Shown here piece after piece: positions 5,970-62,426 of a DNA stretch of 64,000 nt. The DNA comes from Eledone cirrhosa (taxonomy: Eukaryota): the NCBI GenBank assembly GCA_964016885.1, contig OZ024751.1, forward strand, positions 3,658,001-3,722,000. Reading direction: 5' to 3'. Numbering within the stretch: the stretch's first letter is position 1; each line of letters begins with the position of its first letter. Below the pieces are notes generated by a model, which ran no database searches, was not told where the DNA came from, and was given only the letters and a program-made list of their open reading frames with translations. Both the position numbers and the translations under genes were made by a program.

Positions 5970-6095
5970 AGGAAAAAGTATGACTCTGACGGCAGAGCTC
6001 AAGCCGTTTCGACGGCTATTTCCCACTCTACTACCCTAAGTATTGAGTACTCTGGTGCGTTATGGTCCATCTGGTTTCTTACCACAATTCCTTTG

Positions 6096-6657: not shown

Positions 6658-8958
6658 TATGAATTATTAGAATCAAAGAACTGTTCAAAACATTTTTATG
6701 CTTACAACTGTTTCCTCCAAACCGAGGTTTGGATTCTTCGGAGCAATTTATTATTGAATGAACACTTATATGACCTCCTTTTCACCCAAGAGACATACAG
6801 ATACATATGCAAATATTGTGGGTCAACATTCATTACAGCATTCAGTGTGGCAGTACACATTTAGAGATTACATTCATATTAAAAGATACAATCAAAAATA
6901 CAGGTTAAAATACAACATGTAATTAAGCGGTTATAGAGTGCAATAGTTATACGTGTGGCAAGCACGTGCGTCTTGTTTATATAGTGTGGCTGAGAGTTAC
7001 GTGTAATAGAAGCACTTAAGCAGGTAATCAAGAGTGTTAAGGGGGTTGATCTGGTAATGAATTCTTTATATGATTGCTATAGCCTGTACGTGGAGAAATA
7101 ATATAAGCATTAAAAATAATGTAAGCATTAAAAATATTTAAAATATTGGAAATGCGTAGCGAAGCGATGATATGGATTTCATGCACTGCGACATTTTCAT
7201 AGTCCGGGGAGCGTATATTTCAGATTATATGCCCCTCACATAATCCACGACGATTCGATATTGGGCGTTTGACAATCCTGTTAGAGAATCGTAGTTTGAT
7301 GTTCTTTAGTTCAATACAGCAGGTTGATACGTTGCGAGAATCGACATCGAAATATTACCCGGAAGTGTGTGTGTGGCTAATGGGAGTTAATGCATGAGGG
7401 GAGGTAACTCAGTGGTTTCTATTACTAACTATTAAATTGTGTCTCAAAATAGTCCCTAACTTATATGGTTATGCGCAGTTTCTAAAAATTTAAAGTGTCT
7501 TAACTATAATGTAGTCTATTAAACTGTGCTGAAGGTGTTCCTATTATGGTGATTATCCTCCATCGTAGAGTGCCACAAATGAATATCATAATTAATGATC
7601 ACTGTGATTGCAGTCTACTCATAGAACCAAGCAAGGTGATTCCAGAATCACTTCAACGCACAATGATCCCTGGTACGTTCCGGGTCAGTGCATGCTATAT
7701 TGGATGTCGAAAGACAATCATCACTAGGGCAGACCAGAGGTCAATCCACACTCCTCATGTCACTAATATGACCATCAAATCATACATATATGTACAACCC
7801 ATACGCCACTTGCAATACATTCACTGCACTCAGCATACCGGTCGTACAGCTCATCAACGTTACTGGATTAATTAGTCTTCCATTTATCCAACGATGGCAC
7901 TTCCTCCGCATAGCACCAACAATACAATCAATTCAATGCTTAAATTTTACATTAACTATAAAGTGGTGTAGTGCAGTTCAAGCAACTGGATGTAGTCACA
8001 CCTAAAGTAGAAGTACAACGGGGTATTCCTACTGTGAAGGGTTCTAGAGGGATGTCCCGATTAGTGTTATATTAGATCAATGAGTGTGGGGATGTGGTAT
8101 AAAGTGTGCCCCTGGTGTTTGATGCTAGAGGTGGTGTCTGGTTCAAGTCTGACATTGCTATATATTGGGCTTAAAGTTTTGGAAGGAATGTCTGAAGCGG
8201 TGCTGGCAAGTTGCAAACACTTCAGATTTTTTGTTAAGTAGGTTACGGTTAGAGAAGATAATAGTGTGGGTCTCCAGTATACAGAGGTTACAAAATTTAT
8301 TAGGTGGTTTGTACGAAGTCGCGCTACCTATCACTTCCCATTTGAGTGTGTAAGGTTTATTTTTAGTTTTTAGATAGTGTATGTAGCTAGATAGTGAGGT
8401 GGAGCTGGCTAGACTGTGCTTTTTGAACGAGTGGATGTGCGAATTATACCTGGTTTTGAAGCAGTTAGAAGTGGAGCCTACATAGGTTTCTGAAGAGTTG
8501 CTAGTTGTGACGGTGCATGAGTATATGATATCCTTGGTTAGGCATTTTTTATCTAAAGGGCAGGTTCTATTTGCTCTACAGTTACAATTATTCTGGGTGT
8601 TAGTCTGCTGGTTATAATGCTGTGTGCCACACTATATAAACAAGACGCACGTGCTTGCCACACGTATAACTATTGCACTCTATAACCGCTTAATTACATG
8701 TTGTATTTTAACCTGTATTTTTGATTGTATCTTTTAATATGAATGTAATCTCTAAATGTGTATTGCCACACTGAATGCTGTAATGAATGTTGACCCACAA
8801 TATTTGCATATGTATCTGTATGTCTCTTGGGTGAAAAGGAGGTCATATAAGTGTGCATTCAATAATAAATTGCTCCGAAGAATCCAAACCTCGGTTTGGA
8901 GGAAACAGTTGTAAGCATAAAAATGTTTTGAACAGTTCTTTGATTCTAATAATTCATA
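6658..8958 (-). mobile_element. Naiad-type Penelope-like element, 5'-truncated, capped by an inverted pLTR copy
   Basis: 6658-6990 is the reverse complement of 8626-8958; GIY-YIG remnant inside; hammerhead-like motif with CCGAAGA core at 8871-8917 and mirrored near 6700-6745. Confidence 0.85.
8158..8620 (-). pseudogene. Penelope GIY-YIG endonuclease C-terminal fragment
   Basis: NCNCRANRTCPLDKKCL...IIYSCTV...YVGSTSNCFKTRYNSH...CNLCILE...CQHRFRH. Confidence 0.85.
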
Positions 8959-13870: not shown

Positions 13871-14310
13871 GCACGAGAAAATGAAAGGGAAATACTGCTC
13901 AACTTATTTTTTGTCATCTTCCATTTGCCAAAAATATATTTCTCCCGAAAGAATAAGGATTACTTATACAGAATTAAGGTACTATACCGACAAATTAGTT
14001 ATCGTTAACTGTAACATTTGCTGACACATAAAGTGCATATTATAGTTATTAAATGTGTACAATAAGACATAGGTATGTTATTGAATTGATAAGAAAACAG
14101 ATATTGCATAATAAAGATAGTAACAATGTATTAATATGGCTATATATTAAAATATGTATATATATAGGGGGGGGGGGTTCTATATGCGTATGATGTATAT
14201 ATAAACATATATTATATATATTATATGAATTACAAATAAATTATATATTAATATATATTATATATAGGATATATTAGTAATATATTAGTAATATATTAGT
14301 AATATATATA

Positions 14311-14680
14311 TATATTCTTAAGTACACATCGGCTGACTAGCCTAATTTGCATATACTCGCTCGGTATGCAAATTAGGCTAGTCAGCCGATGTGTACTTAA
14401 GAATATACTATATATTTTCAACCGTTCAACAGATTGGCAGAGATATACAGTCCTGATGAATGGTAATGATCCAGAAACATCTTGATTGTTCCTCAAGCCT
14501 GTGTTGAACAAAAGGGTGACGATCTGTCACCGACACAGCTTCAAATCGGGCCATTTCTTTTACAAATGAATCGAACATTATTCTTAATGTTCGATGTAAC
14601 CCATACGTACATATGTATATGTATATATGTGTGTATATATATATATATGTCTGTACGTGTTCATACTTACACACACACAC
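14311..14680 (+). mobile_element. Diverged monomer of the 466-bp hammerhead repeat with 5' fold-back
   Basis: 43-bp arms 14311-14353 / 14365-14407; atgcaaattaggct; degenerate hammerhead 14447-14489; gtgttgaacaaaagggtgacg shared with the array. Confidence 0.75.
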
Positions 14681-16090: not shown

Positions 16091-16123
16091 AAGAATTCGC
16101 GCTAATATAACATATAACATATA

Positions 16124-16154
<31 letters not shown>

Positions 16155-16155
16155 T

Positions 16156-18300
16156 TTGTATATAGCTCCATCCAAATCTGACTTAGGTATAATTAGTGAA
16201 AGCATCCTGGATAGAATCATACCAGTTCTAAAGTTCCGATCTCAACTAAAATTATCGAATGGTACAAATGAGGTTATCGACTGGTTCACTGAACTTCAAA
16301 GTAAATGCAAGACCAAATTTATTCAACTGGATATAGCCAATTACTATTCTTCTATTTCTCCAGCATTACTTAACAAAGCCTTATCATATGCAACAAAATA
16401 TACAGATCTTTCGAGTGATGAAATTAATATTATTCTTATGCTAGAAAGACCCGGAAATTTTGACATTACTGTGGGATCTACACACTCAGCTCAGGTCACA
16501 GACCTCGTTGGAATTTTCATCCTTAATCTAATTCACAGAAGATTACCTGAGCTTGACGGAGGCTTATATCGAGAAGATGCTCTTTTTGTATTAATTAACC
16601 ATAATAATAGCGCCCTTAATAACAAACAAAAATTATAAGTGACTTTTTAAATAATTACGGCCTTAAACTCGAAATTGAAAATAATAATGGAATAGTTAAC
16701 TTCTGGCCTTTACTACTCGTTCCATTAATTAAATGAAAACCTTAATTATGTTAGCTTCCATTCAAACCACCCTAGAAATGTTAAAAGGGTTGTAGTTAAC
16801 AGCGTTCATCAAAGAATCTCTAGACTCTCAGCCAATAAGGAAATTGTTGACAGTAAGGCCAAATACTAAAACGATGCGTTAAATAGAGCAGGTTACTCTG
16901 ATAAAATCGAATATATAGATTAAAATGTTTACATCTCCCTTCCCCGTATATAGATCAACATTCATTTAACATCAATACTAATACATATACATTTCATAAC
17001 AATTGTAATAATGCTGATATTCGTAACTTAAGTCACAGAACTAGGCCAAACCAGTCTTATAATCGATATAACTCCTAAAAAACCAATAAGTCATATAAAA
17101 GGATTCGATCTAGAATCACTAGGAATCAAAAAAATCTTAGCTCACCTTTTCTTCAAAGTTCTTGATAAATGCTTCCCAAAAATATAGTAGAGTTTTTAAC
17201 AGGCATACAATTAAATTCTCATACTCAACCATTAAAAATATTGCCCAAAATATGGCTAAAATTAATAATAGAAATCTCGGAATTAATCATAGAGAGTTAA
17301 CCCCTAATGGTAATCAGAGAATCACTAATAGAATAAATAACTTCTCAGTTAACAACAATTAAACCAATAACATAGACAATGAAAATCTTACGAACTACGA
17401 ACACAGAGTGACATCATTAAATAACAACATAAGTAATTGTAATTGTAAAAATAGTTATTTTTGCCCATTAAGTAATAACTGTCTTGACCGTAATTTAGTT
17501 TATAAATGCATTGTTAAAACAAAAATAAGTTTTATAATTATATTGGTGCTACTTCCTCTAAATTTAAAGAAAGGTGGTACAACCATCGTCACACGTTCAA
17601 AAGAGAAGATTTAGTACAGCTTTATCTGATTTAATTTGGTCGCTTAAAAATAATAATATAGAATATTCTCTTTCTTGTCACAAACTTTCTAATACTTTAC
17701 CTTATAAAAAAATTTCCATTTCAAAGAGTTGTGACCTATGTACCACTGAAATTCTTTACATTCTTAATAGAAAATTAATTATTAATAAACATTCTGAGAT
17801 CTTTAATTCGTGTCTCCACCGATTCTAGAAAACGTTTCATAGAGTTTTTAGTCAAGCTTTATAATAGCTAACAAAATATAGAATATTCCTTCATATATAA
17901 TTTTAATACTTATCTCTACCTATCCTCGAAAATGTTTAGAGTTAAGTTTTATAAAAAAAAAAATAGGTATTATTCCTCTATATATAATTTTCAAGCGATA
18001 TTGTTATCTTTATTTTGATTATATGACAAAATAAGTTAACCAATCTTTCTCCGTTACAATTTTTCATCTACCTTAACTTTAGGTTGTATTTAAATAAATA
18101 AAATTTAATATAAATTGATAAATTAGGCTATAATGTATACATCTTTTCTTTCTAAAATAGTTACACAAAGTATTTATAGTCTCTTCTATTCTTATATTTC
18201 CTACTTAAATAAGATTGTTGAATTGATAAATTTGACCTCGGTAATTATTTCCTTTCTTTTGAACTAAATAATTTACCTCATAGCATTATAACCTTCTCAG

Positions 18301-19104: not shown

Positions 19105-19796
19105 AATAATAGCGAACTAAATAGAGTAAAGAAAGTAATTATAGAATTCTTTAAAAATTACGACCTGAAATTAGAAGTAGAAATTAAAAATAAAATAGTT
19201 AATTTTTAGACGTAACCCTTAATTTAAACTCAGGCTTTTATTACCCATTCCATAAACTCAATGAAAACCTACATTATGTTAACTTTTACTCTAATCATCC
19301 TAAAGGTGTTAAAAATGTAATACTCAATAGTGTCCAACAACGAATATCCAGACTTTCTGCTAACAGATCCATTTTTAATAGTAAAGCTGGATATTATAAT
19401 GAAGCGTTACATAAAGCAGGATATAAAAATTAATATTGAATATGTAGAAAAAAATAATATTAATTATGAATACAATATTCATAATAATAATAATAAAAAT
19501 AAAACTAACTGTAAAAATAACAACTTGGAGAATAAATCGGGGAAAAAAATTAGGACTAGATCTATAATTTGGTACGCCCCACCAGCATCTTTAGCTATTA
19601 AAACACCTTCAGCGCATTTATTTTTTAAAGCCTTACCTTAGATAAATATTTCCCTAGATCACATAAGTATTACCCTATCTTCAACAGACACACAGTTAAA
19701 CTTTCTTATTCAACAACTATGAATATTGCTCAAAATATTGCAAAAATTAATAGCAAAATTCTTAATTTGAACCAGCATATAATTAGCGATAATAAC

Positions 19797-19862
<66 letters not shown>
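19105..19862 (+). mobile_element. Naiad-type Penelope element, 5' part (RT thumb to poly-Asn linker)
   Basis: IVNF/LDVTLNL, SNHP, IIWYAPP, FNRHTVKLSYS, MNIAQNIAKIN...NNNN. Confidence 0.85.
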
Positions 19863-19864
<2 letters not shown>

Positions 19865-20125
19865 TTTCTTTATTAACCACAAGGGTTTACATAAAGTAGA
19901 CATTAAGGACAGTGCAGGACAATGCAGGACGGTACAAATGGGCATTTCTGCGTGTAAAAAAAACAAAAACAGAGGATGTAACAAAAATAACAATGAAAAT
20001 AACAATGAAAAATTCCCCAATAGGGGGGAGACTTCGGAGGGACATTTGTGGAGAAAGCCCAGTAAAAAGCCACAATGACCCTGACCACCAAGGCAAGTGC
20101 CCTCTCCCAGTTTTCCACCTTTAGT

Positions 20126-23100
20126 TTACAGATATATACTCAGAGTCGGCCCATTCACTCGGGCCATTCTTGCTTCTCTCACCCATCTTTCAACAAAATG
20201 CTGGGAAGAGAGCACTTCCTTCTCTACTCTGATTTTCCTTTTCAAATGAAATTTGAAAAAGTCAATCAGAGCATCACCGAAGAGGTAAGTGCTCGTCTTC
20301 AGCCCTTTCAAACGTGTCCACCATACTATCTCTTTCGCCATGGCCACCAGACAGATAAAAACTGCCTGCCCATCCCGGCTAAAGGAGGAGGGCGGGGCAA
20401 TCCTCACGATGGACTCAGATGATAGCTGGATCCGTCCTAAACGCGACAGCAGGTGTTCGACATAAACCCACAAGTCAGCAATTTTCGGACACTGGACGAG
20501 TGCGTGCAGGACGGTTTCGTCGCCCTGCGCGCATCTCGGACATGCCCGGCTGACGACACCTCCATGCCTGTAGAGTTTATCCCGAACTGGCAAGGCTCCT
20601 CGGTAGCACTGCCAGGCCAGAGATTTCTGGAAGTTGTCCATAGGCCCCGGCCCGAAAGTTCTTCCGAAGAGATTGGCTAGTTGATTTTCGTCGACGCCTA
20701 GAGTTTCCCCAAGTACGTCGTCGCTCTTCCCCTCCACTAATCCTCTATAGAACGCCGAGGTGGAGTTTCCACCGATCACATTGCCCGATTGGTCGAGGGC
20801 TGTGAGCGCCTGAAAACATTCCAGTCTCCAGGCGCTCCCTCTCGGTCTTCGCTTGACCCAGGACTGCAGCTCCGTCAAGGAAACGAGCTGGGGAAAAACG
20901 CGTCTAGCAAACGGCGACCACACCTGATCACCGTCGAGGAAGAGGTGGAGATGTCGTAGCCTGAGCGCGTGCCTGCGCATCATCAGCCACGGCATGCCCA
21001 GCCCTCCACGTAGCGGGTGTTGACAACAGATGGACCGCCTGACCATCGGAGCACGTCCCTTCCACAAAAAGCGAAAGAGCAAACGCTCCAGCGCAGTCAG
21101 GCGAGGCTTAGGACAAGGTACGACGGTTAGGCGGTAGCAGATGACAGACGCGATGTACGCGTTAGCCACCTCCGCTCGACCTTTCAGGGATAGCTTCCTC
21201 TCCGCCCATTTCTGGGTGAGAGAAGCCACCCTGCTCGTCACCTCGTCCCAGTTTTTGTCCGTCTGGAGGTCCGGACCGAACCAGACCCCTAGCAATTTAA
21301 CCGGTCCGTCCGTCCAGCGCCCGACGACGCTGTTGGACGGCATGGACCTGCCTCTCCAGGTGCCGAGCTGCAGGCCCACCGACTTTTCCTGGTTGATCAT
21401 TGCTCCTGTCACCGCTTCGTATTCTCTTAGTGTAGTGCCGATCGCCTCGATGTGTTTGGCGTTCGACACCACTACGGTGACATCGTCCGCATATGCTGAC
21501 ACGGATCTTCCGCATCCTAGTTCGCGCGGGACTCCCCTCAACGTCTCCAGTTTGTGCAGTAATGGCTCGAGAGTCAATACGTACAAGAGGGACGAGAGGG
21601 GACATCCTTGGCGGACCGAGCGCATGATGTTGAACGGTTCCGACAGGTGACCGTTCACTCTCACCACAGAGCAGATGTCGCTGTGCATGGCAGCGATCCA
21701 GCCTCTGAAGACGGGCCCAAAGCCAGCCGCCCTCAGGACTGCCGCTAGGTAACGATGGTCGACCCTATCGAAAGCTTTCGACTGATCTAAATTGATCAAG
21801 GACCCACCCGTGCCAGGTTCCTTAGCTACCCTCTCTATGATGTATCGCATGAGGTGGAGGTTGTCGTGGATGGATCTGTCGGGAATGGCGCATGTCTGCG
21901 CCTCTCCCACCAGACCACCAACGACAAGCGCCAACCTCTTTGCTAGCACCTTGGCCAAAATCTTGAACTCTGTGTTTAGCAGAGTTATGGGCCGGAAATT
22001 GTCTATGTTATCCCCCTTGTTCGGATCCTTTCTCAGCAGTGCCACCGCTCCTCGGCTCACAGAACTGGGAATTCTCCCGTTCTGTTGCCAGTTGCAGTAG
22101 ACGTCCGCCAAGAGGCCTCCGAACAAGTCTGGCATCTGTACGTAAAGTTCATAGGGCAGACCATCCAAACCAGGCGATTTACCCCTTGTGCAGCCAGTCA
22201 TTGCCTCCCTTACTTCAGCGGCTGTTATCGGCTTTTCGCAACACTTCGCCTCAGTGGCCGAGAGCCGCGGCAGTCCGTCGAGGTAGACAGTAAAGTCCAT
22301 CCCTCTACCCGGCCCCCCGCTGCCCCCGAACAGCTGAGCGAAGTGTCGCTGAAAAGCTTCACACATTTGCCCGGGATCGAGTAGCATGCGCCCGTCGTGG
22401 TCCACCAAAGACCGGATCGTGGCTTTGTTGCCACGACGCGCCTCCGCCACTCGGGCCCATTGAACGGCTTTCGTCCCCTCGTGTCTGAGAGCACGCACCC
22501 TAGCTCTGACAACGCAGCCTTCGTGCTTTGCATTGAAGAATTGGTCAAGGGCCAATTTCGCCGCAAGCACGTCGGTCGCAATGCCTTTGCTAAGCGCCTC
22601 GTCTAATTTTCTAACTAGTTCTCCCTCTGCTCTATTTTTCTCTATTGCTAAAGCCTTACTAAACCTAATCGATTCTATTCTAATCGCTCTTTTCAGAGCA
22701 AACCACCACTTGTTGTTGACGATGGCCCCCGTCAACGCCCGCTTAACTAGTTCGCTAATCCGGTCTCTGTAGGCCTTGCGCGCTGGTAAGGACGCGTTTA
22801 GCTTCCAGTAGCCGGGTCCTCGTCTATGAAGCCTATCTAAGTCAAGCACACAGGTCACGAATTTGTGGTCCGTGTAGCTGACTATCTTGAATTGTGGACA
22901 GCCTATGCTAGACCTATCTATTTCCCTACAAAATACTCTATCTAGATATGATCTGGATGACCCTATGCGGTTTGTCCAAGTCCACATTGGCACATTCGGG
23001 AAATCCAATCGGTACCTGTCAGACAGTTCAAAACGCCTGAGCAGGTTGGTGAGGCTCTTGCACCCTCCACCCCTATCCGCTAATCCCACACAGTCCCAGC

Positions 23101-23545
23101 GTGCATCTAAGATCCCGTTCCAGTCTCCCACTAACACTAAAGAGCGGGACGTTCCAAGAAAGGTCTCCAGACGCCGGAAGAAATCAGGCCGCCCTGCTCC
23201 TGTCGGGGCATAGACGGCCACTAGCCTGAAAGCTTGCCCGTCTCCGCTGGTCACGTCCAGCACCACCAGCTTACCCTCTGGGTCCAGGAAGATGGCCCGT
23301 ATGGCGAGATCCAAACCTCTCCGAAAAAGCACAGCAACTCCTCCACCCGATCCAGGACGGCTGGGAGATGCGTACACATCGTAGCCGCCGAAGATCGGTG
23401 CGAAGGCCCGTGCTTCGGAGATTCTGGTCTCGCTGATGGCCACTACATCTATGTTTAGTGACCTGAGGTCGTTGAGCAGGTGACCCTGCTTCCATGACGA
23501 CCCCAAGCCACGCGCATTTATGCTGCCTATTCTGAGTGAGGTCAT
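20126..23545 (-). CDS. LINE ORF2: APE endonuclease, reverse transcriptase, C-terminal Zn finger (1139 aa)
   Basis: SINARGL, VAVYAP, GDWN, YLDR, TDH; SPGLDG, FRPITLLN, DQSKAFDRV, QGCPLS, YADD; CPRC...HALVQC. Confidence 0.95.
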   Translation of the reverse strand: MTSLRIGSINARGLGSSWKQGHLLNDLRSLNIDVVAISETRISEARAFAPIFGGYDVYASPSRPGSGGGVAVLFRRGLDLAIRAIFLDPEGKLVVLDVTSGDGQAFRLVAVYAPTGAGRPDFFRRLETFLGTSRSLVLVGDWNGILDARWDCVGLADRGGGCKSLTNLLRRFELSDRYRLDFPNVPMWTWTNRIGSSRSYLDRVFCREIDRSSIGCPQFKIVSYTDHKFVTCVLDLDRLHRRGPGYWKLNASLPARKAYRDRISELVKRALTGAIVNNKWWFALKRAIRIESIRFSKALAIEKNRAEGELVRKLDEALSKGIATDVLAAKLALDQFFNAKHEGCVVRARVRALRHEGTKAVQWARVAEARRGNKATIRSLVDHDGRMLLDPGQMCEAFQRHFAQLFGGSGGPGRGMDFTVYLDGLPRLSATEAKCCEKPITAAEVREAMTGCTRGKSPGLDGLPYELYVQMPDLFGGLLADVYCNWQQNGRIPSSVSRGAVALLRKDPNKGDNIDNFRPITLLNTEFKILAKVLAKRLALVVGGLVGEAQTCAIPDRSIHDNLHLMRYIIERVAKEPGTGGSLINLDQSKAFDRVDHRYLAAVLRAAGFGPVFRGWIAAMHSDICSVVRVNGHLSEPFNIMRSVRQGCPLSSLLYVLTLEPLLHKLETLRGVPRELGCGRSVSAYADDVTVVVSNAKHIEAIGTTLREYEAVTGAMINQEKSVGLQLGTWRGRSMPSNSVVGRWTDGPVKLLGVWFGPDLQTDKNWDEVTSRVASLTQKWAERKLSLKGRAEVANAYIASVICYRLTVVPCPKPRLTALERLLFRFLWKGRAPMVRRSICCQHPLRGGLGMPWLMMRRHALRLRHLHLFLDGDQVWSPFARRVFPQLVSLTELQSWVKRRPRGSAWRLECFQALTALDQSGNVIGGNSTSAFYRGLVEGKSDDVLGETLGVDENQLANLFGRTFGPGPMDNFQKSLAWQCYRGALPVRDKLYRHGGVVSRACPRCAQGDETVLHALVQCPKIADLWVYVEHLLSRLGRIQLSSESIVRIAPPSSFSRDGQAVFICLVAMAKEIVWWTRLKGLKTSTYLFGDALIDFFKFHLKRKIRVEKEVLSSQHFVERWVREARMARVNGPTLSIYL

Positions 23546-23580
23546 GTTTAAAATAGAGTGGAAAAGATGGGAAAGACCAC

Positions 23581-25674
23581 TTACCGTACTTTTGGTAGAG
23601 GAGGGATGGTTTTTACATCCCTTTTCACTTGATCGTCTGGTGAAGGGACCGTTGAATCGTCCCTTCGGCTGGTCGTCGGCTCTTCTAAGAGTATGTCTGA
23701 GTATACTCTTCGATTGATGGTTCCTCCTAGGTCCCTGAAATCACCAACTGCGTTGGGGAATTTCGTTTTAATGTTTGTGTATTGTTTCTGTGCTATTTTT
23801 AGCAGTCTTATGTTAGTTGGCGTTTTGATTGGTGCTGGTATTATGTAGTCCTGTTGTGAAATGTCTGTGTGTTCAATTATGTAAGTCATTAGTTTCTTGT
23901 TGTGTGTATTTATTGCCGTGCATTTGTTTTTCTGGGGGTGGGGTGTGGTCCTGCTATTTTCTTGTCGTTGTTGCTGGGTGTGTGTGTTTTGTTGTTGTGT
24001 TTGCGATGTTGGTGCTTGTGGTGGTGGTGTTGAAGGTGTTGTTGGCGGTGGGGTTGTCGCCGGTGGTGATGGTGGTGCTAGTGTGGGTGGTGATGGTGTT
24101 GGTGTTGTTGCTGCTGTGGATCTCTTTGCAGTAGACTTTACCCTTTTCTCATTTCTTTCCTCCCTTTTCAAAGGCGACGATGCGCTGCTTCTGCGTTTGT
24201 GCCTTCTTGCGACCTTTTGCCATCCCTCTCCCACCTCACACTCCATGTCTGATTCTGTGAGGTCGGGGAGGGGTACCAGCTCCACTCTTTCACTTGTTGT
24301 TGTTGGTGATGTTTGCACTGGAGTCTCTGTTGCAGCTGCATTTGGTATTGCTGTTGTTGTTGTTAATATTTCCACTGCTGCTGCTGTTTTTGATTTCCGT
24401 GGCGTGGGTATGGGTGCCACGGACCTATCGTTCCTGGTTGCCGCTTGTCCTGTTGCTGGTAGCCGTGGAGCCGGATTCGGAAGGAGGGGGGTTTTCTCCT
24501 TTCTCAGGGTCTTCTCGTTGCAGAAGGCCCTGAGGTGAGTCTTCGATCCACAGCGAAAGCATTTCGGGCGTTTGCCCTCAACACTTATGGGCAGTTGAGT
24601 GCCGTTATCGAAGTCTATCACATCCGGGATAGCTTCGATGCACTCCTGGTTGGTTTGGATTAGCATCTCAATGGAGGAGCCGACCCAATCTTCTCTTACT
24701 TTTTTCTGTACTTGCAGTACAGTTGTTTTGTCCTCGATTCCGACGAGGACAGACGCGGCCAGCCAAGAAGGGGTCATTCCGGGGGGGACGTGGGTCAGTT
24801 TGACCCTCACAATTTTTTGCCCGCAGTAGGAGGGCACCAACACCATTTCTTCGCTCCTTAGGGTCACTACTGATTGGGCCTTTGCCTCCTGGGGTGTGGC
24901 AAAAAGTACGTCTACGGTGGCGTATTTTTTGCCTCGGGTGATGTGCGTTTTCCTCTGCCACACAGACCCCAAGGCTTTTTGTATTTGGGCCTCTGTGGCT
25001 CTTTCCACCCTACGGGATTTTGTACTTACTGTACGGTACGTGACCGTACAGCGCTCTTGGGTTTCGAAAAAATCTTTCGCTGCCTTGCAGATTGCTCGGT
25101 GTCCGTTCTTTGTCACCATCTTCTTCGCTTCCTCTAATTCCTCATTTGTTATGAGGATTGTTTCCAAGTTTTTCGCAATACCTGCAAATGAGATTGGTTT
25201 TTCTCTGCTGTTGTTGTTGTCGTCAGAGCTGCTGGTACTTTTGTTGCTGCAGGTACTACGACTACTGCCTCCGCCGCTGTTGCTGTGGTTGTTGTTGGTG
25301 TTGCTGCTGCTAATGCTGTTGTTGTTTATGCTGCTGGTGATGCTGTTGCGGCTGCTACTGTTGTTTTCATTGTCACTGTTGCTGTTGTTATTACGGCTGC
25401 TACTGCTATTATTCCTGACGTCAGACGAATGAACTGGGTTTTCGTATTTCCCGCACACCTGTTTCGTCGCTGTCGTCGTCGTCGTGGAGAAACCTTGCAC
25501 GCTTTGCACGAGACTTTTCTTTTCTTTCGTCGCTTGCGAAAGAGAAGGGAGGGAGAGAGACACATTTAAAGAAGGGAGGGAGAGAGACAATCTTCTCTCT
25601 GCTGTAGTGATGATTGAGGAAGAAGAAGACGGAATGAGTGGGAGTGACGTATGAAATTTCTTTTTGGTAGCCAT
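23581..25674 (-). CDS. LINE ORF1 gag-like protein with CCHC knuckle
   Basis: Open frame from ATG 25674 (MATKKK); CFRCGSKTHLRAFC; 35-nt spacer to ORF2. Confidence 0.88.
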   Translation of the reverse strand: MATKKKFHTSLPLIPSSSSSIITTAERRLSLSLPSLNVSLSLPSLSQATKEKKSLVQSVQGFSTTTTTATKQVCGKYENPVHSSDVRNNSSSSRNNNSNSDNENNSSSRNSITSSINNNSISSSNTNNNHSNSGGGSSRSTCSNKSTSSSDDNNNSREKPISFAGIAKNLETILITNEELEEAKKMVTKNGHRAICKAAKDFFETQERCTVTYRTVSTKSRRVERATEAQIQKALGSVWQRKTHITRGKKYATVDVLFATPQEAKAQSVVTLRSEEMVLVPSYCGQKIVRVKLTHVPPGMTPSWLAASVLVGIEDKTTVLQVQKKVREDWVGSSIEMLIQTNQECIEAIPDVIDFDNGTQLPISVEGKRPKCFRCGSKTHLRAFCNEKTLRKEKTPLLPNPAPRLPATGQAATRNDRSVAPIPTPRKSKTAAAVEILTTTTAIPNAAATETPVQTSPTTTSERVELVPLPDLTESDMECEVGEGWQKVARRHKRRSSASSPLKREERNEKRVKSTAKRSTAATTPTPSPPTLAPPSPPATTPPPTTPSTPPPQAPTSQTQQQNTHTQQQRQENSRTTPHPQKNKCTAINTHNKKLMTYIIEHTDISQQDYIIPAPIKTPTNIRLLKIAQKQYTNIKTKFPNAVGDFRDLGGTINRRVYSDILLEEPTTSRRDDSTVPSPDDQVKRDVKTIPPLPKVR

Positions 25675-25910
25675 GTTTTTTTGTTTAAAATGAAATTTTG
25701 AGTACAAAACCCCAATAACTGGTTATTTAACCCCGAAGGGCCAAATAACGGACAGAAAGACCCCTCTCACGAGGAGGAGGATGTCTTTATCAACAATTTG
25801 GTTCAAGTTTTAAACAATTTACAATTGTTTTAACGGTTAAAAATTACTATACCTTACAGAGCCGAGCCTCCGTCAACCATGGCATTCAATAATAATAATA
25901 ATAATAATAA

Positions 25911-28900
25911 CTGTGTGTTTGTTTGTTTATGTGTGTTCGTATACAGCGTGGTGATAATGCCACACAAGGGCCAAGTGGAACGGCGAATCCACAGATGGCT
26001 ATGTAACCATACATTCGCCAATCCTCGATAAGAGTGTTTAAATATCGAACATAAACAGTTCGAATAACGGTGAAATGGAGACTAGAACGTCATGTGACAG
26101 ACTCTCACCCAACAGGTGCCCCCTGGCTCAGCAGCAGGAACCTGACTGTCAACCAAATACTGCTGATGTTGGAGGAAGAAGAAGAAGGAAAGGGGCCAGA
26201 ACCAACTGGACGAAAGAATTGAATAGAACTGTTATGCAATGTTACCTGAAAAGTAACCCCAAGGAGAGGGGCTACAGGAGACGGATGCATAACATCTGGA
26301 ACGAGATTGGTCTATTTAAATTAGATGAACAAAAATTGGCCGGGCAGGCTCGGGTAATAAGAACTAATGGGTGGATAAGCGAGCTGGAACTGGAGGAACT
26401 GAGCAGAGAGAATGGCTTGGAGATGGCGGGTGTAGTATGCCAGACAAGCGAGCCAGTGGGAAATGAAGGTGAAGAGATCCTGAGAACGGAGGAACCACCC
26501 GAAGCAGACAATGATCTGAATACTGAGATAAATAATACCTGGAACAGAGATACGGCCACTGAGGAGATGAATGCTGACGGGCTAGGACAAGATTCGGTTG
26601 ACATCCTAAATTTAGTGGTAGATGAATTGAACAATGATAGTGGGAGACCTATGAACCTAAGATTTGTAGACAGGAAAAAGTTAACAGAAACAACAGCTAA
26701 GGTAAACAAAGTCATCCCATACCTTGAGGCGAGGAGCCTTCACCAGTGCAACAATATCCTCAAAGCAACAGCAAATACGGTGAGGAAACTACTTGGTATA
26801 AAAGCGAGAGGAAACAACAGACAAGAAAGAGCAGAGCCGTGGTGGAAGAAACGACTGAGTGGTCAAATCGGGGAAATGAGAAATGACATAGGAAAGCTTG
26901 AGTCACTACTGAATGGGACACTAAAAAACATAGGCACTAAAAATAGACTGGAAATAAAGTACAAAACTAGGAGGAAAAAGCTAAATATTATCATAGAGGA
27001 ACTGAAGCAACGCATTGTAGCAAAGAGTGCAAAAATCAGGCGATACGAGAACAGAGTCAGTCAGTATAAACAGAACCGCATGTTCGACAACAACCAGAAG
27101 ATGCTGTTTGGACAGCTTGAGGGGAAAGAAAGAGGCAACGACTTGATCCCTGGGGCGGAGCAAACTAAAACATTCTGGAGAGGAATATGGGAGCAGGATG
27201 TTAGACATAATGTCCAGGCAGGGTGGATTGAGACAGTACAGAGGGAGATCGGTGAGCAGGCACACCAACAAACTGATTTGAGTATCACAGTTGAAACTCT
27301 TAAGGGGCAGGCCAAAAAACTAACCAACTGGAAATCACCAGGCCCAGATGGTGTGCAGGGGTATTGGATTAAAAATTTAACATCCCTCCACCCGAAACTG
27401 ACGGCCATGTTCAATGACTGCTTGGTGTCGGGTGAGGTGCCAGAGTGGTTGACAAAAGGTACCACAGTTCTGATAATGAAAGACCGAATCAAGGGTAATG
27501 ATGTTACCAACTATAAACCTATCACATGTCTGTCCGTAATGTGGAAACTGTTGACGAGTATTGTGTCTGAGGAAATCTACCATCACCTCCACACAAACAA
27601 CTTGTTACCGGACGAACAGAAAGGATGCCGAAAGAAGTCACGTGGTACAAAGGACCAGTTACTTATTGATAAGATGGTAATGGGGAATTGCAGGAGGAGA
27701 CACACTGATCTTGCCATGGGATGGATAGACTACAGAAAGGCATTTGACATGGTGCCTCATTCTTGGATCACCAAAAGCCTGGAGATCTTCAGGGTGGCAG
27801 ATAACATCAGACAGTTGCTGGGCAGGAGTATGGGGTCCTGGGAGACAGAGTTGACATCAACTGGAGTATCCTTGGGAAGCGTGAAGATCAAGAGAGGTAT
27901 CTTCCAGGGAGATAGCCTGTCCCCTCTGTTGTTTGTCCTTGCCCTGATGCCCTTGACCATTATGCTGCGAAAAGTGAGAGCAGGATACAAGTTGGGAAAG
28001 GGAGAGCTTACCATCAATCACCTCCTCTTCATGGACGATCTTAAGCTCTTCGGGAAAAGTGAGAAGGAGTTGGATGTGCTTGTTGACACTGTCCGTATTT
28101 TCAGCAGTGATATATGTATGCAGTTTGGTATTAGTAAATGTGGAGTCATTGTGATGAGGAGGGGTAGGTTGAGCAGAAGTAACGGGATCCAGATACCAAC
28201 AGGTGAGATGATAAAGGAAATTGACTCTGAGGAAGGATACAAGTATTTGGGCGTTCTGGAGGCTGATGGCATAAAGAACAAAAAAATGAAGGAATTGTTA
28301 AGAACTGAATACATTCGGAGAGTAAGGAGCGTATTGAAGTCACACCTGAACAGCAGAAATGCCATAAGCGCAGTAAATTCCAGAGCTGTGTCTATTATTA
28401 GGTACAGTGCGGGAATTCTGAGATGGAATGTTGCTGAACAAAAAGAAATGGATAGGAAGACTAGGAAGCTATTGACTATCTACAACATGTTCCACAAGAG
28501 GAGTGATGTCGATAGACTCTACCTAAGGAGATCTGAGGGTGGAAGAGGTCTTATCAGCATAGAGGACTGTGTTCAGATGGAGAAAAACAACCTATACAAA
28601 TACGTGACCTATAGTAAGGAGCCAATGCTCAGAACTGTACTGAAGGAGGGGACAGTAGGCCAGGGGATGTCCAAGGAGGAAATAACATCAAGGAGGAAGA
28701 GCAGCCTTAAGGGAAAATCCCTTCATAGTACCTTCTTTGAGAAAACTGAATTTAGAGATCCACAGACATGGAACTGGTTGAGAAGAGGAGACCTCAAAAA
28801 GGCTACAGAAGGAATGCTAATGGCTGCGCAGGAGCAGGCCCTCAAAACGAAGTGGTTGAAGCACCATATTTACAAGGAGGAGGCTAGCCCACTGTGCAGG

Positions 28901-29545
28901 ATCTGTGGAGAGAGAGAGGAGACTGTGGCTCACATTGTGTCCGAGTGTAAACACCTAGCCCAGACCCACTATAAGGGCTGGAGACACGATGTGATGGGCA
29001 GCGTGATCCACTGGCACCTGTGCAAAGTAAACAATTTACCACATTCTGAGAAATGGTATGAGCATAGGCCAGAGGCGGTGATGGAGAACAATCAGGTGAA
29101 GGTGCTGTGGGATTTTAGGATACAGACGGACAAAAAAACTGGAACACAATAGACCTGACCTGGTGGTTGTGGACAAAGAAAAAAGATCGTGTCTGATTGT
29201 GGATGTGGCCTGCCATTTCGACACGAGAGTGCAAGAGAAGGAGAGGGAGAAAATTAACCGATACCAGGACCTAAAGTGGGAGGTGAAAATGATTTGGAAC
29301 TGCCATGAAGTCAAAGTGATCCCGATTGTCATAGGCGCACTGGGGACTATCTCCAAAGGTTTCCAGGGATGGTTAAAGAAAATCGGCCCCTTCACGCTTT
29401 TTGGAACGCTTCAAAAGGCATGCTTGCTGGGAACAACAAGAACCCTCCGATACGTCCTGAATATCTGAGGCTGCAGGTAGTGGCTTGATATTCATTCCAA
29501 CGGACTTTCCAGTTAACCAACATCAATGACTGAGATTCAAGGAAT
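25911..29545 (+). mobile_element. R4/Dong-clade non-LTR retrotransposon, apparently full length, in (TAA)n
   Basis: Single RT-RLE ORF; AAT runs at 25888-25910 and 29552-29585. Confidence 0.9.
26075..29468 (+). pseudogene. RT + CCHC + restriction-like endonuclease ORF with one +1 frameshift in the A7 run 29132-29138
   Basis: KSPGPDG, RGTKDQLLIDK, QGDSLSP, HLLFMDD, CRIC...HIVSEC, RHD, then shifted HNRPDLVVVD...D...EREKINRYQDL. Confidence 0.9.
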
Positions 29546-30105: not shown

Positions 30106-30293
30106 TGTTTCTACTTTTGGCACAAGGCCAGCAATTACCCAGTGCATTGCTGGTACTTTATTTTATCGACCCCGTAAGGATGAAAGGCAAAGTTAACCTC
30201 GGCGAGATTTGAACTCAGAATGGCAAGGGCCGTAACTCTATACGTCAAAGCATGGCGTCCGACCCTCTACTGATACTGCCAATCCACCACCAT
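30106..30293 (-). mobile_element. SINE family A, full length, inside the GIY-YIG coding region
   Basis: 19-bp TSD cattaagacaaataataat (30087-30105 / 30294-30312). Confidence 0.92.
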
Positions 30294-31800
30294 CATTAAG
30301 ACAAATAATAATAATACTTATAACTACATTGGTGCCACTTCATCGAACATTAAGTTTCGCTTTTCCAAGCATAAACATTCTTTCTCAAATCCAGATAAAA
30401 AACTTTCTACTTCATTATCACAATTAATATGGTCTTTAAAAGAGAAAACTATTAAATACTCAATTTCTTGGTGTAAACTTAGAAACTCTGAGTCCTATCG
30501 GAACGATTCCATCTCACCAAATTGCAATCTTTGCAATTTAGAAACTCTATTAATTAACAAACTCTATTTAACAAAAAAAAAAAACGAATTATTTGCAAAT
30601 TGTCTCCATAAATCTGGAAAAACATTTCAAGCATCATACAAATTTAGAAAAAAATACTGACTAAGAGGAGAAAAAAATATGGACTATTATTATTAATAAT
30701 TCTTGAATTATTGTTTTTATATAAATAATGTTTTGCCTTACCTTAAAATTGTATATTTAATCTCATGAGGTGATTGTATAATTAATCTCATGAGGTGATA
30801 AGTTCGAATTTTTGAACGGCCATTGTGTAACTAGAACTTTCTGAACTTGCGGTTTAAAATATCTTCTGGCTTTCAAAGCATTTAGATAATATAAATGACC
30901 ACATATGGATTACCTCCCTTTGTTTACATTCTTCGTATATTATTTTCTTTTTATCCAAATGGATTAATAATGTATATTTAACATGATATTAATGGTTATA
31001 GGGAAACTACATATATTATGATATTATGATTTAGTTATGAAATTAGAATCGAAATAGTAATACTTTAATGAGTGAATATAACTACTTATTAAACCTATCA
31101 GTAAATGACAATTGTTTATATTGTAAAATGAATAATTCTGATAATAATTCTAAACATTATATAAAATGCATATACTGATGGTGATATGCGAATATGTTGT
31201 GGTAAATATCCTTATACATATTTATTGTGTGAAAACTTGCTTGATAGGTAAAAATGTTTTTGAATTTTGAATTTTGTAACAAAATATTGAATATATTTAT
31301 TTATTGAATTATGCTTCTGATTAATATAGAAAATATTTTTATATTGTTTCATTTTGATATAATACATTAGTATAATTAGCTCAAACATAACCAAATACAG
31401 AATATATTAAAAATTTCACGGTATTTAATTGGTCGCTTCTGTTTGACTTAATATTTGAAAACAACGGTCACGCGTCGTGTTCCTTTCTTCTTTCATTCTT
31501 TCCATTTTGCGGTTACGTCCTCCCTCTTCTCTCTCTCTTTTTCTTCTATCATATCTTATTTTTTCTGTCTTCTTCTCTCTTCTCGTCTATCTATCTCCCT
31601 CTCTTTATTTCTTCTTACATTTTTCATACCACTCCCCCTTTTTCCTACATCTCGCTCCACATCCTCTTCTTCATCCTATTTAAGTTTATCATGTTATTAT
31701 TTGTGCATATAAATATTGAGATGTGTTGTAATAAATCACTACTAATACTGTAATTGAACCATCAAGAGAGTTGAGGTATGTCATACATCAATTCATATAT

Positions 31801-31859
31801 TTTATCTGATGAGAGCGTACTGAAAAAACACACAGTACCTCCGAAATATATATAATAAA
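31801..31859 (+). ncRNA. Type I hammerhead in Penelope pLTR
   Basis: tttat-CTGATGA-gagcgtactg...cagtacctcc-GAAA-tatata-TA-ataaa. Confidence 0.72.
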
Positions 31860-32409: not shown

Positions 32410-32590
32410 TAAGGGTTGACGGACCCACCATATTTATCAATGCCAGTACCGGTTGTATCTCAGCGCACTCAATGGCCAATGTAAGATGCATTACCAGAGT
32501 ATACACATAGTTATTTGCCTCAACACAACACACGTAAAACAAGTGCCTATAAGGTTCCCGAACTCGAGTTTACTCCCTGAATAAACTCCC
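32410..32590. repeat. Dispersed repeat, inverse copy about 56965-57125
   Basis: gttgacggacccaccatatttatcaatgccag matches the reverse complement near 57095-57125. Confidence 0.7.
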
Positions 32591-32740
32591 TGGAAATATA
32601 TATATACATCTACACATGTGTATCCATATATATATATATACATATACACATGTGTATCCATACATATATATATATATATAAATTTTAATTTTTATTATTA
32701 GTTTATATATATATGTTTATATATATATGTTTATATTAAT

Positions 32741-32780
<40 letters not shown>

Positions 32781-32784
<4 letters not shown>

Positions 32785-33365
32785 GGAAAAAATGAAACGA
32801 AATTTCATTTCCCACTCTTAGTACGGCTGTTACTTAAATATAAGTATGTACACAAATATAAGTATGTACACAAATATAAGTATGTACACTTAATACGGGA
32901 TGTTTGTAAACAAACATCCTGTATTAAGCCGTAGTGTCTAGCAACCATCGTTGCTCGGTTGTTCAACACTGACAAAGGAACGCTGTACTAGTTTCAAGCT
33001 TATTAGCTATCGTCAGCAACGTATACCTTCCTGCCAGATTGTTGAACGTATATACTTACCTTATGCATATTATAGGCATAAGGTAAGTATATACGTTCAA
33101 CAATCTGGCAAGAAGGTATACGTTGCTGAAGATAGCTAATAAGCATGAAACTAGTACAGCGTTCCTTTGTCAGTGTTGAACAAACGAGCAACGATGGTTG
33201 CTACACACTACGGCTTAATACGGGATGTTTGTTTACAAACACACCGAGCATTATAATAAATGTTCGGTGAATCCATACGTACATATATATATATGTGTGC
33301 ATGTATGTATATATATATACATACTACTGTGCATCTGTATACATATATGTATGTACGTGTACATA
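32781..33365. mobile_element. Head-to-head inverted dimer of a relative of the 466-bp hammerhead repeat
   Basis: Palindrome centred near 33070; hammerheads at 32980-33022 (-) and 33120-33162 (+); 32781-32850 matches the array 3' end. Confidence 0.85.
33120..33162 (+). ncRNA. Minimal type I hammerhead
   Basis: acgttg-CTGAAGA-tagctaataagcat-GAAAC-ta-GTA-cagcgt; mirror copy has CTGACGA. Confidence 0.8.
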
Positions 33366-33407
33366 TATATATATATATATACATAAATATAAACATATAT
33401 ATATAAA

Positions 33408-33484
<77 letters not shown>

Positions 33485-33616
33485 ATAAATATAAACATAT
33501 ATATATAAACATATAATAAAAATTAAAATTTATATATATATATGTATGGATACACATGTGTATATGTATATATATTTTTTCGGGGAGTTTATTCATTTTT
33601 CCATTAACATTATAAA

Positions 33617-33703
33617 GCGTCTGACGAGCCGCGGATTACAGAGTCGAGATAGATCAATACATATCGAACGTTGAGCCATATCGCGGGCGAAACGCGCGTC
33701 ACC
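33617..33703 (+). ncRNA. Type I hammerhead with palindromic stem III (unrelated pLTR family)
   Basis: CTGACGA-gccgcgg...tcgcgggc-GAAACGCGCGTC; stem I only 2 bp. Confidence 0.6.
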
Positions 33704-33759
33704 AACCAATAAACGTAATGAAGGAGTAAACAATTTTACTTGTAATTTTATTTCACTAT

Positions 33760-34518: not shown

Positions 34519-35706
34519 GCATATGTATATATATATGTTTGATACAGAAGCGAAAACCAACCAAACAGTGAGTGTGTTCTGTTATTAAATCTGGCAATAT
34601 TATTACACAAATATGACACTCCCCAAGTATAACAATATATATATATGTATATAAATATATATACATATGTATATACATATGTATATATATATATGTATAT
34701 CTATGTATATATATATATATATATATACATATACGAATATGTATATATGTATATATATATGTATACATATATATAGATATGTATACGTATATATATATGG
34801 GTATATATATATATATATACATATATAAATACATATGTATATATATATATATACATTTATATATATATATATATATCAATGATATTAATAAAAGGGATCT
34901 ATATTTATAAAACCATGTTTATTCTATTATATATATTTCCAGGGTACCAAAATTTGGTACGCACTCATAAGATAAGATACAAAATTTGTTTCATAAATAT
35001 TGACGTACTCAGGCATAAGACCTTAACGGTTCCTAACCCGTTAACGTCTGATTCCTGGGTATGTATATATGTATATGTATATACATACATATACATAAAT
35101 ATATACATATATATTATCTCCTGTCATTATTCATGTTTATTTATATGTTAATCAATTTCTAGTTATTATAAAATGCTCGGACCTACTCGTTAGAATCTTA
35201 GAGCTTATTTTGCGGGTGATATGGCGCATGTCTTTCTGGCATGACACCCATAATTTTGATTTAGATTAAATTCATTTGATTTATCTTAATTTTGGATATA
35301 GATATATACATATATATATATATATATACAAATATATATATATATATATCTGTATCGATATACATATATACACATATATGCATATACATATATGTATATA
35401 TATATATATGTATATATATATATGTATATATCTATGTATATATATATATGTATATATGTATATATATATACATATATATGTTTATATATATGTATATATG
35501 TATACATACGTATATTTAATATATCTCATAAAATAATACAGACAATTATCCACACAATACAATATAGTTAACACCCCAAACATTTAATTGGGAATATACT
35601 GCGGTAGTTCCTAATTTTTGTTGAGTGAGTTTGAAATTGGTCGGAGTACCAGTAATAGCTTCCTCCGTTTATGTAATTATATATTTATGTATATATATGC
35701 ATATAT

Positions 35707-51124: not shown

Positions 51125-51339
51125 GTGACGAAACATAAGTCAATTGCATGAACTCATAATCCTTTATTTACTGCTATATATATATATTTCGATGATAGCC
51201 ATTGAATGGCTATGACCTCATCAGGTCATAGCCATTCAATGATGAGGTCATAGCCATTCAATGGCTATCATCGAAATATATATATAGCAGTAAATAAAGG
51301 ATTATGAGTTCATGCAATTGACTTATGTTTCGTCACTAT
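51122..51339. repeat. Fold-back palindrome with hammerhead core at the inversion point
   Basis: Arms of about 100 bp; (CT)GATGA-ggtcatagcc attcaat ggctatcatc-GAAA-tatatata. Confidence 0.85.
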
Positions 51340-53561: not shown

Positions 53562-53671
53562 ATAGGAAAATGTTTGACCCCGACGGCAGAGCTCAAGCCG
53601 TTTCGACGGCTATTTTAAAATAGCCGTCGAAACGGCTTGAGCTCTGCCGTCGGGGTCAAACATTTTCCTAT
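53562..53671. repeat. Perfect 110-bp spacerless palindrome
   Basis: 55-bp arms centred on tttt|aaaa at 53616/53617. Confidence 0.92.
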
Positions 53672-53773: not shown

Positions 53774-54102
53774 ATGGAAACTATATTTATAAAACCATAT
53801 TTAATCTATTATATATATTTCAAGGGTACCAAAAATGTTGGTACGCTTTCATCAGATAAAATACAAAGTGTGTTTTATAAATTTTGACATAGCCAAGGAA
53901 CATACCTTAATGGTTAAAATTTTCCTTGGATAGTCAAAGAAAATTTCTAAGGAAAATTTCAACCGTTAAGGTGTGTTCCTTGGCTATGTCAAAATTTATA
54001 AAACACACTTTGTATTTTATTTGATGAAAGCGTACCAAACTTTTTGGTACCCTTGAAATATATATAATAGATTAAATATGGTTTTATAAATATAGTTTCC
54101 AT
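53774..54102. repeat. Fold-back palindrome with a hammerhead in each arm
   Basis: Arms of about 155 bp; intact CTGATGA at 53849-53855 (-), TTGATGA in the right arm. Confidence 0.85.
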
Positions 54103-54217
54103 TTATTTAATATCATTTAATATCATTGAATATTATACTCCAAATCTGTCGAGTGCTCTGAATCAGTTATAAACATTTATATTTGTTGAATTACCAACAA
54201 ATTGAATATCCCTTCTG

Positions 54218-54282
<65 letters not shown>

Positions 54283-62258: not shown

Positions 62259-62299
62259 TATTGTATATTAATCTGTATTGTATTTTAATCTGTATTGTA

Positions 62300-62361
62300 T
62301 TTTATCTGATGAAAGCGCACCATAGTTTGCCTTGGTAGCCCTTGAAATATGTATAATAAAA
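62300..62361 (+). ncRNA. Hammerhead motif (53774 family)
   Basis: ttttat-CTGATGA-aag...ctt-GAAA-tatgta-TA-ataaaa. Confidence 0.6.
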
Positions 62362-62426
62362 TAAATATGGTTTTATAAATATAGTTTCCAGTTGTTAATA
62401 TATTGTAATAAAAATATATATATATG

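Follow-up and report, generated by a model that had tools for sequence, protein, structure and literature searches.

A palindromic, retrozyme-like locus in Eledone cirrhosa is very probably a dead Penelope-type insertion

Metazoan non-LTR retrozymes are described as non-coding elements with a GC content below 50% and tandem type I hammerhead units (excerpts of PMC7229834; bioRxiv 10.64898/2026.07.22.740005). The preprint gives a unit range of 51-972 bp, takes two tandem ribozymes as its criterion for an active retrozyme, and reports cleavage for only one of nine predicted elements. The axolotl motifs HHR_Amex1 and HHR_Amex2 cleave efficiently only as dimers and poorly as monomers, according to the excerpts of PMC7229834. 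Mobilization of animal retrozymes by Penelope-like elements (PLEs) has so far been argued from co-occurrence and pLTR phylogeny, with the mechanism left open in the portions of PMC7229834 and bioRxiv 10.64898/2026.07.22.740005 that we used, and inverted arms, tails, and cephalopod families are absent from the main texts of both. Across the literature searched (main texts, titles, and abstracts), no description of an inverted-arm plus tail architecture was found for retrozymes.

PLE insertions, as excerpted from PMC8557442, consist of an inverted 5'-truncated copy with a 30-40-bp tail on one end and have (TA)n targets. The tail is the stretch between two reverse transcriptase (RT) start sites, as shown in vitro, and both DNA strands are cut and extended (PMC11167929). 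The anole PLE protein of that study, a predicted dimer, uses two adjacent RNA start sites without homology. Head-to-head junction palindromes are the most frequent arrangement in the excerpted part of PMC3846280, where they are ascribed to self-priming.

We analyzed a 64,000-nt stretch of the E. cirrhosa genome (the window), which is AT-rich, animal-type DNA with many (TA)n tracts and transposon fragments. Three loci of a single retrozyme-like family lie within it, namely the palindromic locus at 32781-33365, a tandem array, and a third copy near 14.4 kb. Their features and the flanks of the palindrome (X and X') are given below, where distal and proximal denote the two end sites of the family. 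In what follows, unit position 1 is the base after the predicted cleavage site.

14311-14671, plus strand: third subfamily copy, with a 43-47-bp fold-back, an 11-nt loop, and a hammerhead core at 14453, ending at the proximal site
32578-32780, plus strand: left flank X, TA-rich, with distinctive words
32781-32835, minus strand: tail of about 55 nt, the distal 3' end of the family against (TA)n, with two small predicted hairpins
32836-32889, minus strand: 18-bp unit in three perfect copies
32889-32928, no strand: mini-palindrome, made of an 11-nt inverted templated insertion (32890-32900) and a 7-nt native quasi-palindrome joining it
32901-33066, minus strand (sense): left arm of the main palindrome, whose native sequence runs on through the loop to 33077
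32975-33029, minus strand: predicted type I hammerhead motif, as intact as those of the array, with a predicted cut after 32986
33065-33077, no strand: fold-back junction, a 9-nt loop (33067-33075) native to the left arm and closed by a 2-nt GC microhomology
33076-33241, plus strand (sense): right arm of the main palindrome
33113-33167, plus strand: second predicted hammerhead motif, with a predicted cut after 33156
33242-33356, plus strand: 115 nt of family sequence, native and confined to the right arm, with two adjacent predicted hairpins, the second TA/CA-rich
33357-33365, plus strand: right end without a tail, at about unit position 241, followed by (TA)n
33366-33595, minus strand: right flank X', an inverted duplicate of X
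41718-41945, minus strand: inverted 5' arm of the array, perfect, 228 bp, with an 18-nt loop and no tail, ending at the proximal site
41944-48311, plus strand: array of 13.7 tandem copies of a 466-nt unit, with a hammerhead motif in each complete copy

The original prediction, made from the sequence of the window, described 32781-33365 as a palindromic dimer belonging to a second subfamily of the array unit. The palindrome was confirmed as an inverted repeat (32901-33066 and 33076-33241) whose 166-bp arms differ by six substitutions and no indels around the 9-nt loop, with a folding z score of -38 against 100 shuffles. Its assignment to a diverged subfamily also held, the locus being 76-77% identical to the 466-nt array unit over about 185 nt. 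The term dimer had to be dropped, since the palindromic part makes up only 341 of the 585 nt, both arms are partial copies of the array unit (each covers less than 300 of its 466 nt), and 115 nt are found on the right only. Both the array and the 14.4-kb copy contain sequence homologous to those 115 nt (33242-33356). The predicted 18-bp triplication was present as 3.0 perfect copies at 32836-32889, its unit being the longest among the 21 perfect non-microsatellite tandem duplications found outside the array in the window, and the predicted mini-palindrome was likewise seen, at 32889-32928. No ORF of at least 120 aa overlaps 32781-33365, and the RT plus GIY-YIG ORF of an autonomous PLE is absent there. 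The plasmid sequences gave no blastn match to 32901-33280, and ARAGORN returned no tRNAs, hence no sign of a tRNA-derived SINE head. The insertion target is a (TA)n microsatellite, within which a target-site duplication is unreadable, and the flanks of the locus are an inverted, not a direct, duplicate.

Because (TA)n palindromes are hard to assemble, and because the inverted flanks stretch the symmetry to about 1 kb, a read chimera or an assembly fold-back was considered. The divergence between the arms is difficult to reconcile with such an artifact, as comparison with an outgroup places derived changes on both of them (33111 and 33145 on the right arm, 32958 on the left). The right arm has 115 nt of native sequence missing on the left, the sequence after X' is unrelated, and the layout recurs at other loci. 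We consider an artifact the least probable of the explanations weighed here.

The array contains 13 identical hammerhead motifs spaced 466 nt apart and spans from the base after the predicted cleavage site to the distal end site. Among ORFs of at least 120 aa, one touches the array start and is repeat-derived, and none recurs in the units; the GC content is 0.36. The array thus has the retrozyme features of tandem type I hammerhead units, lack of coding capacity, low GC, and a unit of a few hundred bp, its 466 nt falling within the range of the preprint. The hammerhead motif of the family further resembles HHR_Amex2 in having U.U at the base of helix II and HHR_Amex1 in having a 1-bp helix III with a palindromic tetraloop, as these are excerpted from PMC7229834. 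A circle of the 466-nt unit is predicted to be 67% paired, with a z score of -9.4 that is inflated by the TA-like tract. On the features that can be tested from the DNA, the family is a non-LTR retrozyme, with cleavage and circular RNA as predictions, and it is best read as a putative new family of this class, "new" being meant independently of any comparison with published family sequences. The third copy is more diverged than the palindromic locus, and 32781-33365 differs from an active retrozyme as defined in bioRxiv 10.64898/2026.07.22.740005 in that its motifs lie on opposite strands and its units are partial. The only variant of the array, A to T at unit position 203, is shared by copies 6 (44476) and 11 (46806) but not by copy 1, which led us to reject a circular template of five units for the array; the variant possibly reflects a later duplication of a 5-unit block or an assembly effect.

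Two divergent hammerheads had been predicted at the palindrome. A type I core was indeed found on each strand, with C3 at 33016 (minus) and 33126 (plus), and both cores keep C3-A9 and GAAA, but the two motifs are not equivalent, the right stem II being damaged. The left motif has a 6-bp stem I plus a distal stem, a U.U followed by a 4-bp stem II, and a 1-bp stem III with a palindromic tetraloop. On the right, a T-to-A change at 33145 places an A.A beside the family U.U at the base of stem II, leaving a 3-bp stem II under two mismatches. The left motif passed a structural hammerhead scan and the right motif failed it, because the change at 33145 turns the first stem-II pair into A.A. Of the 18 hits that the scan yielded across the window, 13 belong to the array, one is the left arm, and four lie elsewhere; the mean in 40 Markov controls was 0.1 loci, and none of these had a stem I of at least 6 bp.

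The Rfam hammerhead models gave no match at the gathering score over the window, nor were they among the 81 matches at E<=10 over the locus; these sub-threshold matches, mostly to miRNA models that score the hairpin, were dismissed as trivial. No other Rfam family reached its gathering score in the window, the isolated hammerheads of the two arms folded no better than shuffles (z -0.3 and 0.05), and a degenerate 31-nt hammerhead pattern had no matches in bacterial and archaeal genomes. Lacking a curated Rfam match, the hammerhead assignment stands on the core sequence and on covariation. Stem I was predicted to covary and pairs as described (acgttg/cagcgt), with one G.U to U.G flip relative to the array; when the 14.4-kb copy is included, three of its six pairs change on both sides. 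Over the whole motif, 5 of 15 pairs have changed on both sides, and 9 of 500 shuffles were as high (4 rows, 3 subfamilies). No shuffle of the 4-row alignment reached the covariation score, a result that relatedness can inflate; the rows represent only three independent subfamilies. The proposed structure pairs in 95% of the alignment cells, compared with 35-51% for slid registers.

The strong form of the original idea would be a functional locus under selection, acting as a bidirectional ribozyme or as a source of siRNA from its hairpin. The retention of C3-A9 and GAAA in both cores is in keeping with this idea, and the hairpin of a read-through transcript (-358 kcal/mol, predicted) could feed small-RNA pathways. 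The differences between the arms argue the other way: all six break pairs, none is compensated, and one weakens the right stem II. The read-through transcript is also predicted to bury both motifs, the modeled probability of stem I, which reaches 0.94-0.99 when an arm is taken in isolation, being 0.0 for read-through RNA of either strand, where that of stem II is 0.0 as well. The same layout is, moreover, routine in the window, and we find selection for such a function very unlikely. Motifs on opposite strands cannot release a monomer; for the stem-III region, self-dimerization is predicted at -6.8 kcal/mol.

The ends of the three family loci fall mainly at two sites. Two of the six ends are distal, these being the right end of the array (unit position 308-310) and its equivalent at 32781. 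Three are proximal, at 246-248 (inverted arm of the array), 247 (14.4-kb copy), and about 241 (33365). The remaining end, that of the 47-bp inverted arm at 14311, lies at an internal TA-like site. It had been claimed that the left terminus of the palindrome ends where the array ends, and 32781 proved homologous to the array right end within about 3 nt (17 versus 20 nt past a shared anchor), although the last 10 nt or so align poorly. The chance of two ends falling within 3 nt of each other is 1.5% for uniform placement and 3% if only AT/TA sites are allowed. The fixed 3' priming point on (TA)n that had been deduced from this coincidence was right in kind, in that the ends do show a preference on (TA)n, but the family has two such sites rather than one. 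The proximal site sits in a small predicted stem-loop, and about 60 nt of tail separate it from the distal site; the pair matches the known PLE tail (PMC11167929, PMC8557442) and sets no new rule. The right end of the palindrome is about 6 nt shorter than the other proximal ends, and may be the edge of a later deletion and not a terminus if X/X' arose in the same event.

These properties bring the locus close to insertions of EN+ PLEs. Shared with the excerpted descriptions of such insertions are the head-to-head inverted 5'-truncated copy with a short junction palindrome, the tail on one arm, the two preferred end sites, and a hammerhead near the 3' end (PMC8557442, PMC3846280, PMC11167929), together with a (TA)n target that hides any target-site duplication (PMC8557442). 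The locus differs in having no RT/GIY-YIG ORF, in its tail of about 60 rather than 30-40 nt, and in the lack of a matching pLTR in the window. We hold it to be very probable that 32781-33365 is a dead PLE-type insertion of the retrozyme-like family, whichever detailed route produced it, and it is likely an ordinary footprint of PLE-enzyme insertion rather than an element of a new kind. The PLE hallmarks of 5' inversion, a two-site tail, and a (TA)n target are seen directly in three copies of a single retrozyme-like family.

The palindromic layout is routine for Penelope-type insertions. A scan of the window for fold-backs returned 10 cases, of which 4 lie within TA-like tracts and were set aside, leaving 3 in the family and 3 in unrelated families; five Markov controls gave 0, 1, 0, 0, and 0. 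The palindrome is one of six such fold-backs in 64 kb, and its value is indirect. An unrelated family provides the fold-back at 53774-54102, with hammerhead cores on both of its 154-bp arms (C3 is mutated on the right) and a tail of about 95 nt on one arm; its other arm ends where three independent copies of that family end. Relatives of this family (53774-54240) lie near 34860-35030, 37896-38230, and 62295-62424. The fold-back at 51125-51336 has hammerhead sequence on both arms, and its junction cuts through the hammerhead core; there is a short tandem duplication at this junction, and the right arm has extra sequence. A perfect 55-bp fold-back without a loop was observed at 53562-53671, with shorter related forms at 5970, 51435, and 61247.

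For the detailed route, we lean, at slightly better than even chances, toward insertion by a PLE enzyme with snap-back of the cDNA, followed by later repair of a deletion in the left arm. The PLE endonuclease would have nicked (TA)n, with synthesis by the RT beginning at the distal site. The top strand would be its product and would include the tail, then the TA-like tract, then the hammerhead, still uncut; it would end at 33077, which is 91 nt upstream of the cleavage site. The 3' end of this cDNA would then have folded back on the 2-nt GC match visible over the 9-nt loop and primed synthesis of the sense right arm. The sense copy presumably halted at the first proximal site and was joined to (TA)n, such that only one arm received a tail. 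The resulting copy is predicted to be dead, as it has no tandem ribozymes for monomer release and its read-through RNA would form a 166-bp hairpin concealing the two motifs.

A 5' fold-back with a loop of 9-18 nt is found at all three family loci, and in each the loop is native to the long arm: it matches the array at 8 of 12 versus 5 of 12 positions here (a likelihood ratio of 80-480 under assumed match rates) and at 7 of 11 versus 1 of 11 positions at 14.4 kb, and it is exact in the array. Since the loop is native to the left arm of the palindrome, the most fitting reading is that the top strand is first-strand cDNA whose priming took place at the distal site, with the right arm as its copy. 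The fold-back junction of the array comprises the 18-nt loop and a 2-nt microhomology, and its inverted arm covers 228 bp in a 6.4-kb insertion of 13.7 units, ending at the first proximal site after the fold; snap-back explains this stop simply. The junction sequence itself cannot discriminate between snap-back and the end-to-end annealing of two cDNAs.

Such annealing is the final step of a different proposal, twin priming, in which a dimeric PLE enzyme primes both target strands in one event at the distal and proximal RT start sites. The distal cDNA would meet the hybrid of the second, stutter twice over 18 nt, hop onto the second cDNA to produce the 11-nt inverted segment, and return to the RNA past the hairpins, whereupon the two cDNAs would anneal at their 3' ends. 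The scar in the left arm would then be explained without a second event. The anole PLE protein, a predicted dimer, does cut and extend both strands (PMC11167929). The placement of the 18-mer also favors this proposal and was counted against the snap-back route, as its sense 3' boundary at unit position 250 lies at the proximal site, 2-4 nt from the termini at 246-248 and 247, and there are 9 nt of overlap between its inner end and the right terminus. In the unrelated palindrome at 53774-54240, 10 nt are likewise duplicated at the proximal terminus, on the arm that bears the tail, and as duplications with a unit of at least 10 nt number only 10 in 57.6 kb, the two coincidences are suggestive.

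The stutter pattern was, however, noticed post hoc, in a by-eye inspection of about 6 tail-bearing ends, 2 of which show it. In the array, the proximal site is traversed 14 times by the tail-bearing strand with no stutter, and the second arm amounts to half of the first unit out of 13.7, which would require special timing; the inverted arm at 14.4 kb ends at neither site. Twin priming is conceivable, although we rate its chances as well short of even. The arms of L1 twin-priming insertions are largely non-overlapping. The two arms of the present locus differ from L1 5' inversions in covering the same RNA stretch and in having no poly(A). The head-to-head junction and the 2-nt microhomology are shared with L1 5' inversions, as described in excerpts of PMC10191854 and bioRxiv 10.1101/2024.12.14.628481.

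The snap-back route assigns the damage in the left arm to a time after copying, because the right arm retains the 115 nt. Later synthesis across the left arm would have stalled at the two adjacent hairpins, with the loss of 115 nt; the edges of the deletion are 0 and 2-4 nt from the outer bases of the two adjacent predicted hairpins, and its breakpoint coincides with the inner end of the 18-bp repeat. Repair would have left behind three templated insertions, one inverted (11 nt) and two direct (18 nt each), a pattern like that of synthesis-dependent end joining, where such insertions are ascribed to loop-out and snap-back (excerpts of PMC5728401). For the inserted bases, both direct and inverted, the source sequence lies at most 30 nt from the break. 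The combination of a deletion with direct (loop-out) and inverted (snap-back) insertions from a source within about 30 bp resembles the synthesis-dependent microhomology-mediated end joining of PMC5728401, but the junctions of the 18-mer show 0-1 nt of microhomology, less than the primer repeats usual in that model as excerpted. Repeated template switching, which had been proposed for the nested repeats, is accordingly supported in a general sense. As the right arm mirrors the left yet keeps the 115 nt, the switches did not all occur in a single simple pass of reverse transcription.

The flanks X and X' form an inverted duplication of about 180 bp that the original prediction overlooked. Their distinctive words occur nowhere else in the window, and they diverge at 2 of 99 positions in the core and about 5 of 122 overall, compared with 6 of 166 between the arms (Fisher p 0.7-1.0). 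Either the element entered the center of an older palindrome, or the X/X' duplication arose with an insertion. The unique inverted flanks and a divergence that does not differ from that of the arms are what would be expected if host DNA repair or replication, apart from insertion, had acted on a break in a resident single copy, folding it back and copying about 500 bp including X, after which both arms would have lost different pieces. A host process of this kind does not account for 5' fold-backs in all three family copies and in unrelated families, nor for an array without inverted flanks. Inverted flank duplications of 52-220 bp are, furthermore, a by-product of L1 insertion in the excerpted text of PMC10191854 (cf. 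bioRxiv 10.1101/2024.12.14.628481), which offers a model for X/X' that requires no separate event. We therefore judge the host-repair explanation unlikely. X has an internal duplication with a 34-bp unit, and about 30 bp of X' are duplicated on either side of a TA run. Adjoining X' is an element at 33596-33757, with a hammerhead-like core at 33621, a long stem II, a palindromic stem III, and no convincing stem I, which could be the source of X'. At the 14.4-kb copy, an 11-bp unit is repeated 3.5 times just outside the fold-back end (14270-14308), a short stutter at the insertion edge.

The sense strand of the array has its first base at 41944, directly after the predicted cleavage site; the position is ambiguous by 2 nt, and this is a single locus, for which coincidence would have a chance of about 3 in 466. 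That all 5' junctions lie at the cleavage site was rejected, since this holds at one of the three family loci (the array) and the other junctions lie 91 and about 129 nt upstream. At that one locus, the start points to ribozyme-cut sense RNA as the probable template, and it appears to fit snap-back of cDNA better than the antisense-RNA model of PMC3846280, as excerpted. It contrasts with the in vitro PLE study, in which hammerhead cleavage was dispensable and no RNA-seq reads ended at the cleavage site (PMC11167929). Because the array begins exactly at the cleavage site, its template could more specifically have been retrozyme RNA, cut by its ribozyme and inserted directly in the sense orientation by a dimeric PLE enzyme that uses two fixed RNA sites and both target strands. 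On this view, stutters of tail-bearing arms at the second start site (18 nt three times here, 10 nt twice in the unrelated family) would be traces of the process left in the genome. We offer this reading tentatively, as one that is rather more likely to be wrong than right. If true, it would constitute the first sequence-level record of retrozyme movement and of PLE-type retrotransposition exploiting a hammerhead product in vivo, and would speak against antisense RNA as the template.

The host genome is likely one with PLEs. For a degraded piece at 4548-5117 (minus), the best of four hits is an 803-aa RT protein of Octopus vulgaris with 55% identity; the piece also shows a weak RVT_1 match and, by eye, a DKG-like motif, which the excerpts of PMC8557442 treat as diagnostic of PLEs. 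Weak GIY-YIG matches below the cut-off were obtained in two of the eight ORF pieces scanned. The 466-nt unit has no match to the PLE remnants in the window, where neither an autonomous partner nor a partner pLTR was found. Seventeen hand-picked hammerhead cores were compared with random positions, and (TA)6 occurs within 320 nt downstream in 16 of the cores versus 44% of the random positions.

Two degraded PLE-like ORF remnants, at 4446-5261 and 63008-63824 (minus), share 72% identity; the closest named protein comes from Octopus vulgaris, and a hammerhead core lies a few hundred bases downstream of each remnant. The fragments at 8158-8631, 16111-16638, 19629-20078, and 30274-30660 resemble a second PLE-like family, two of them with weak GIY-YIG matches. 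A two-ORF LINE at 20126-25722 (minus) has a 1204-aa endonuclease-RT frame that looks intact, and a second LINE-type RT of 1036 aa at 26042-29468 (plus) is followed by a short downstream frame. Further hammerhead-like families, none of which is detected by Rfam in the window, were noted at 4184, 10191, 52521, 53368, and 62789 on the minus strand and at 31806, 48803, 55513, and 62306 on the plus strand. In some of these, one more base separates the core from stem II, and a palindromic stem III is seen in several.
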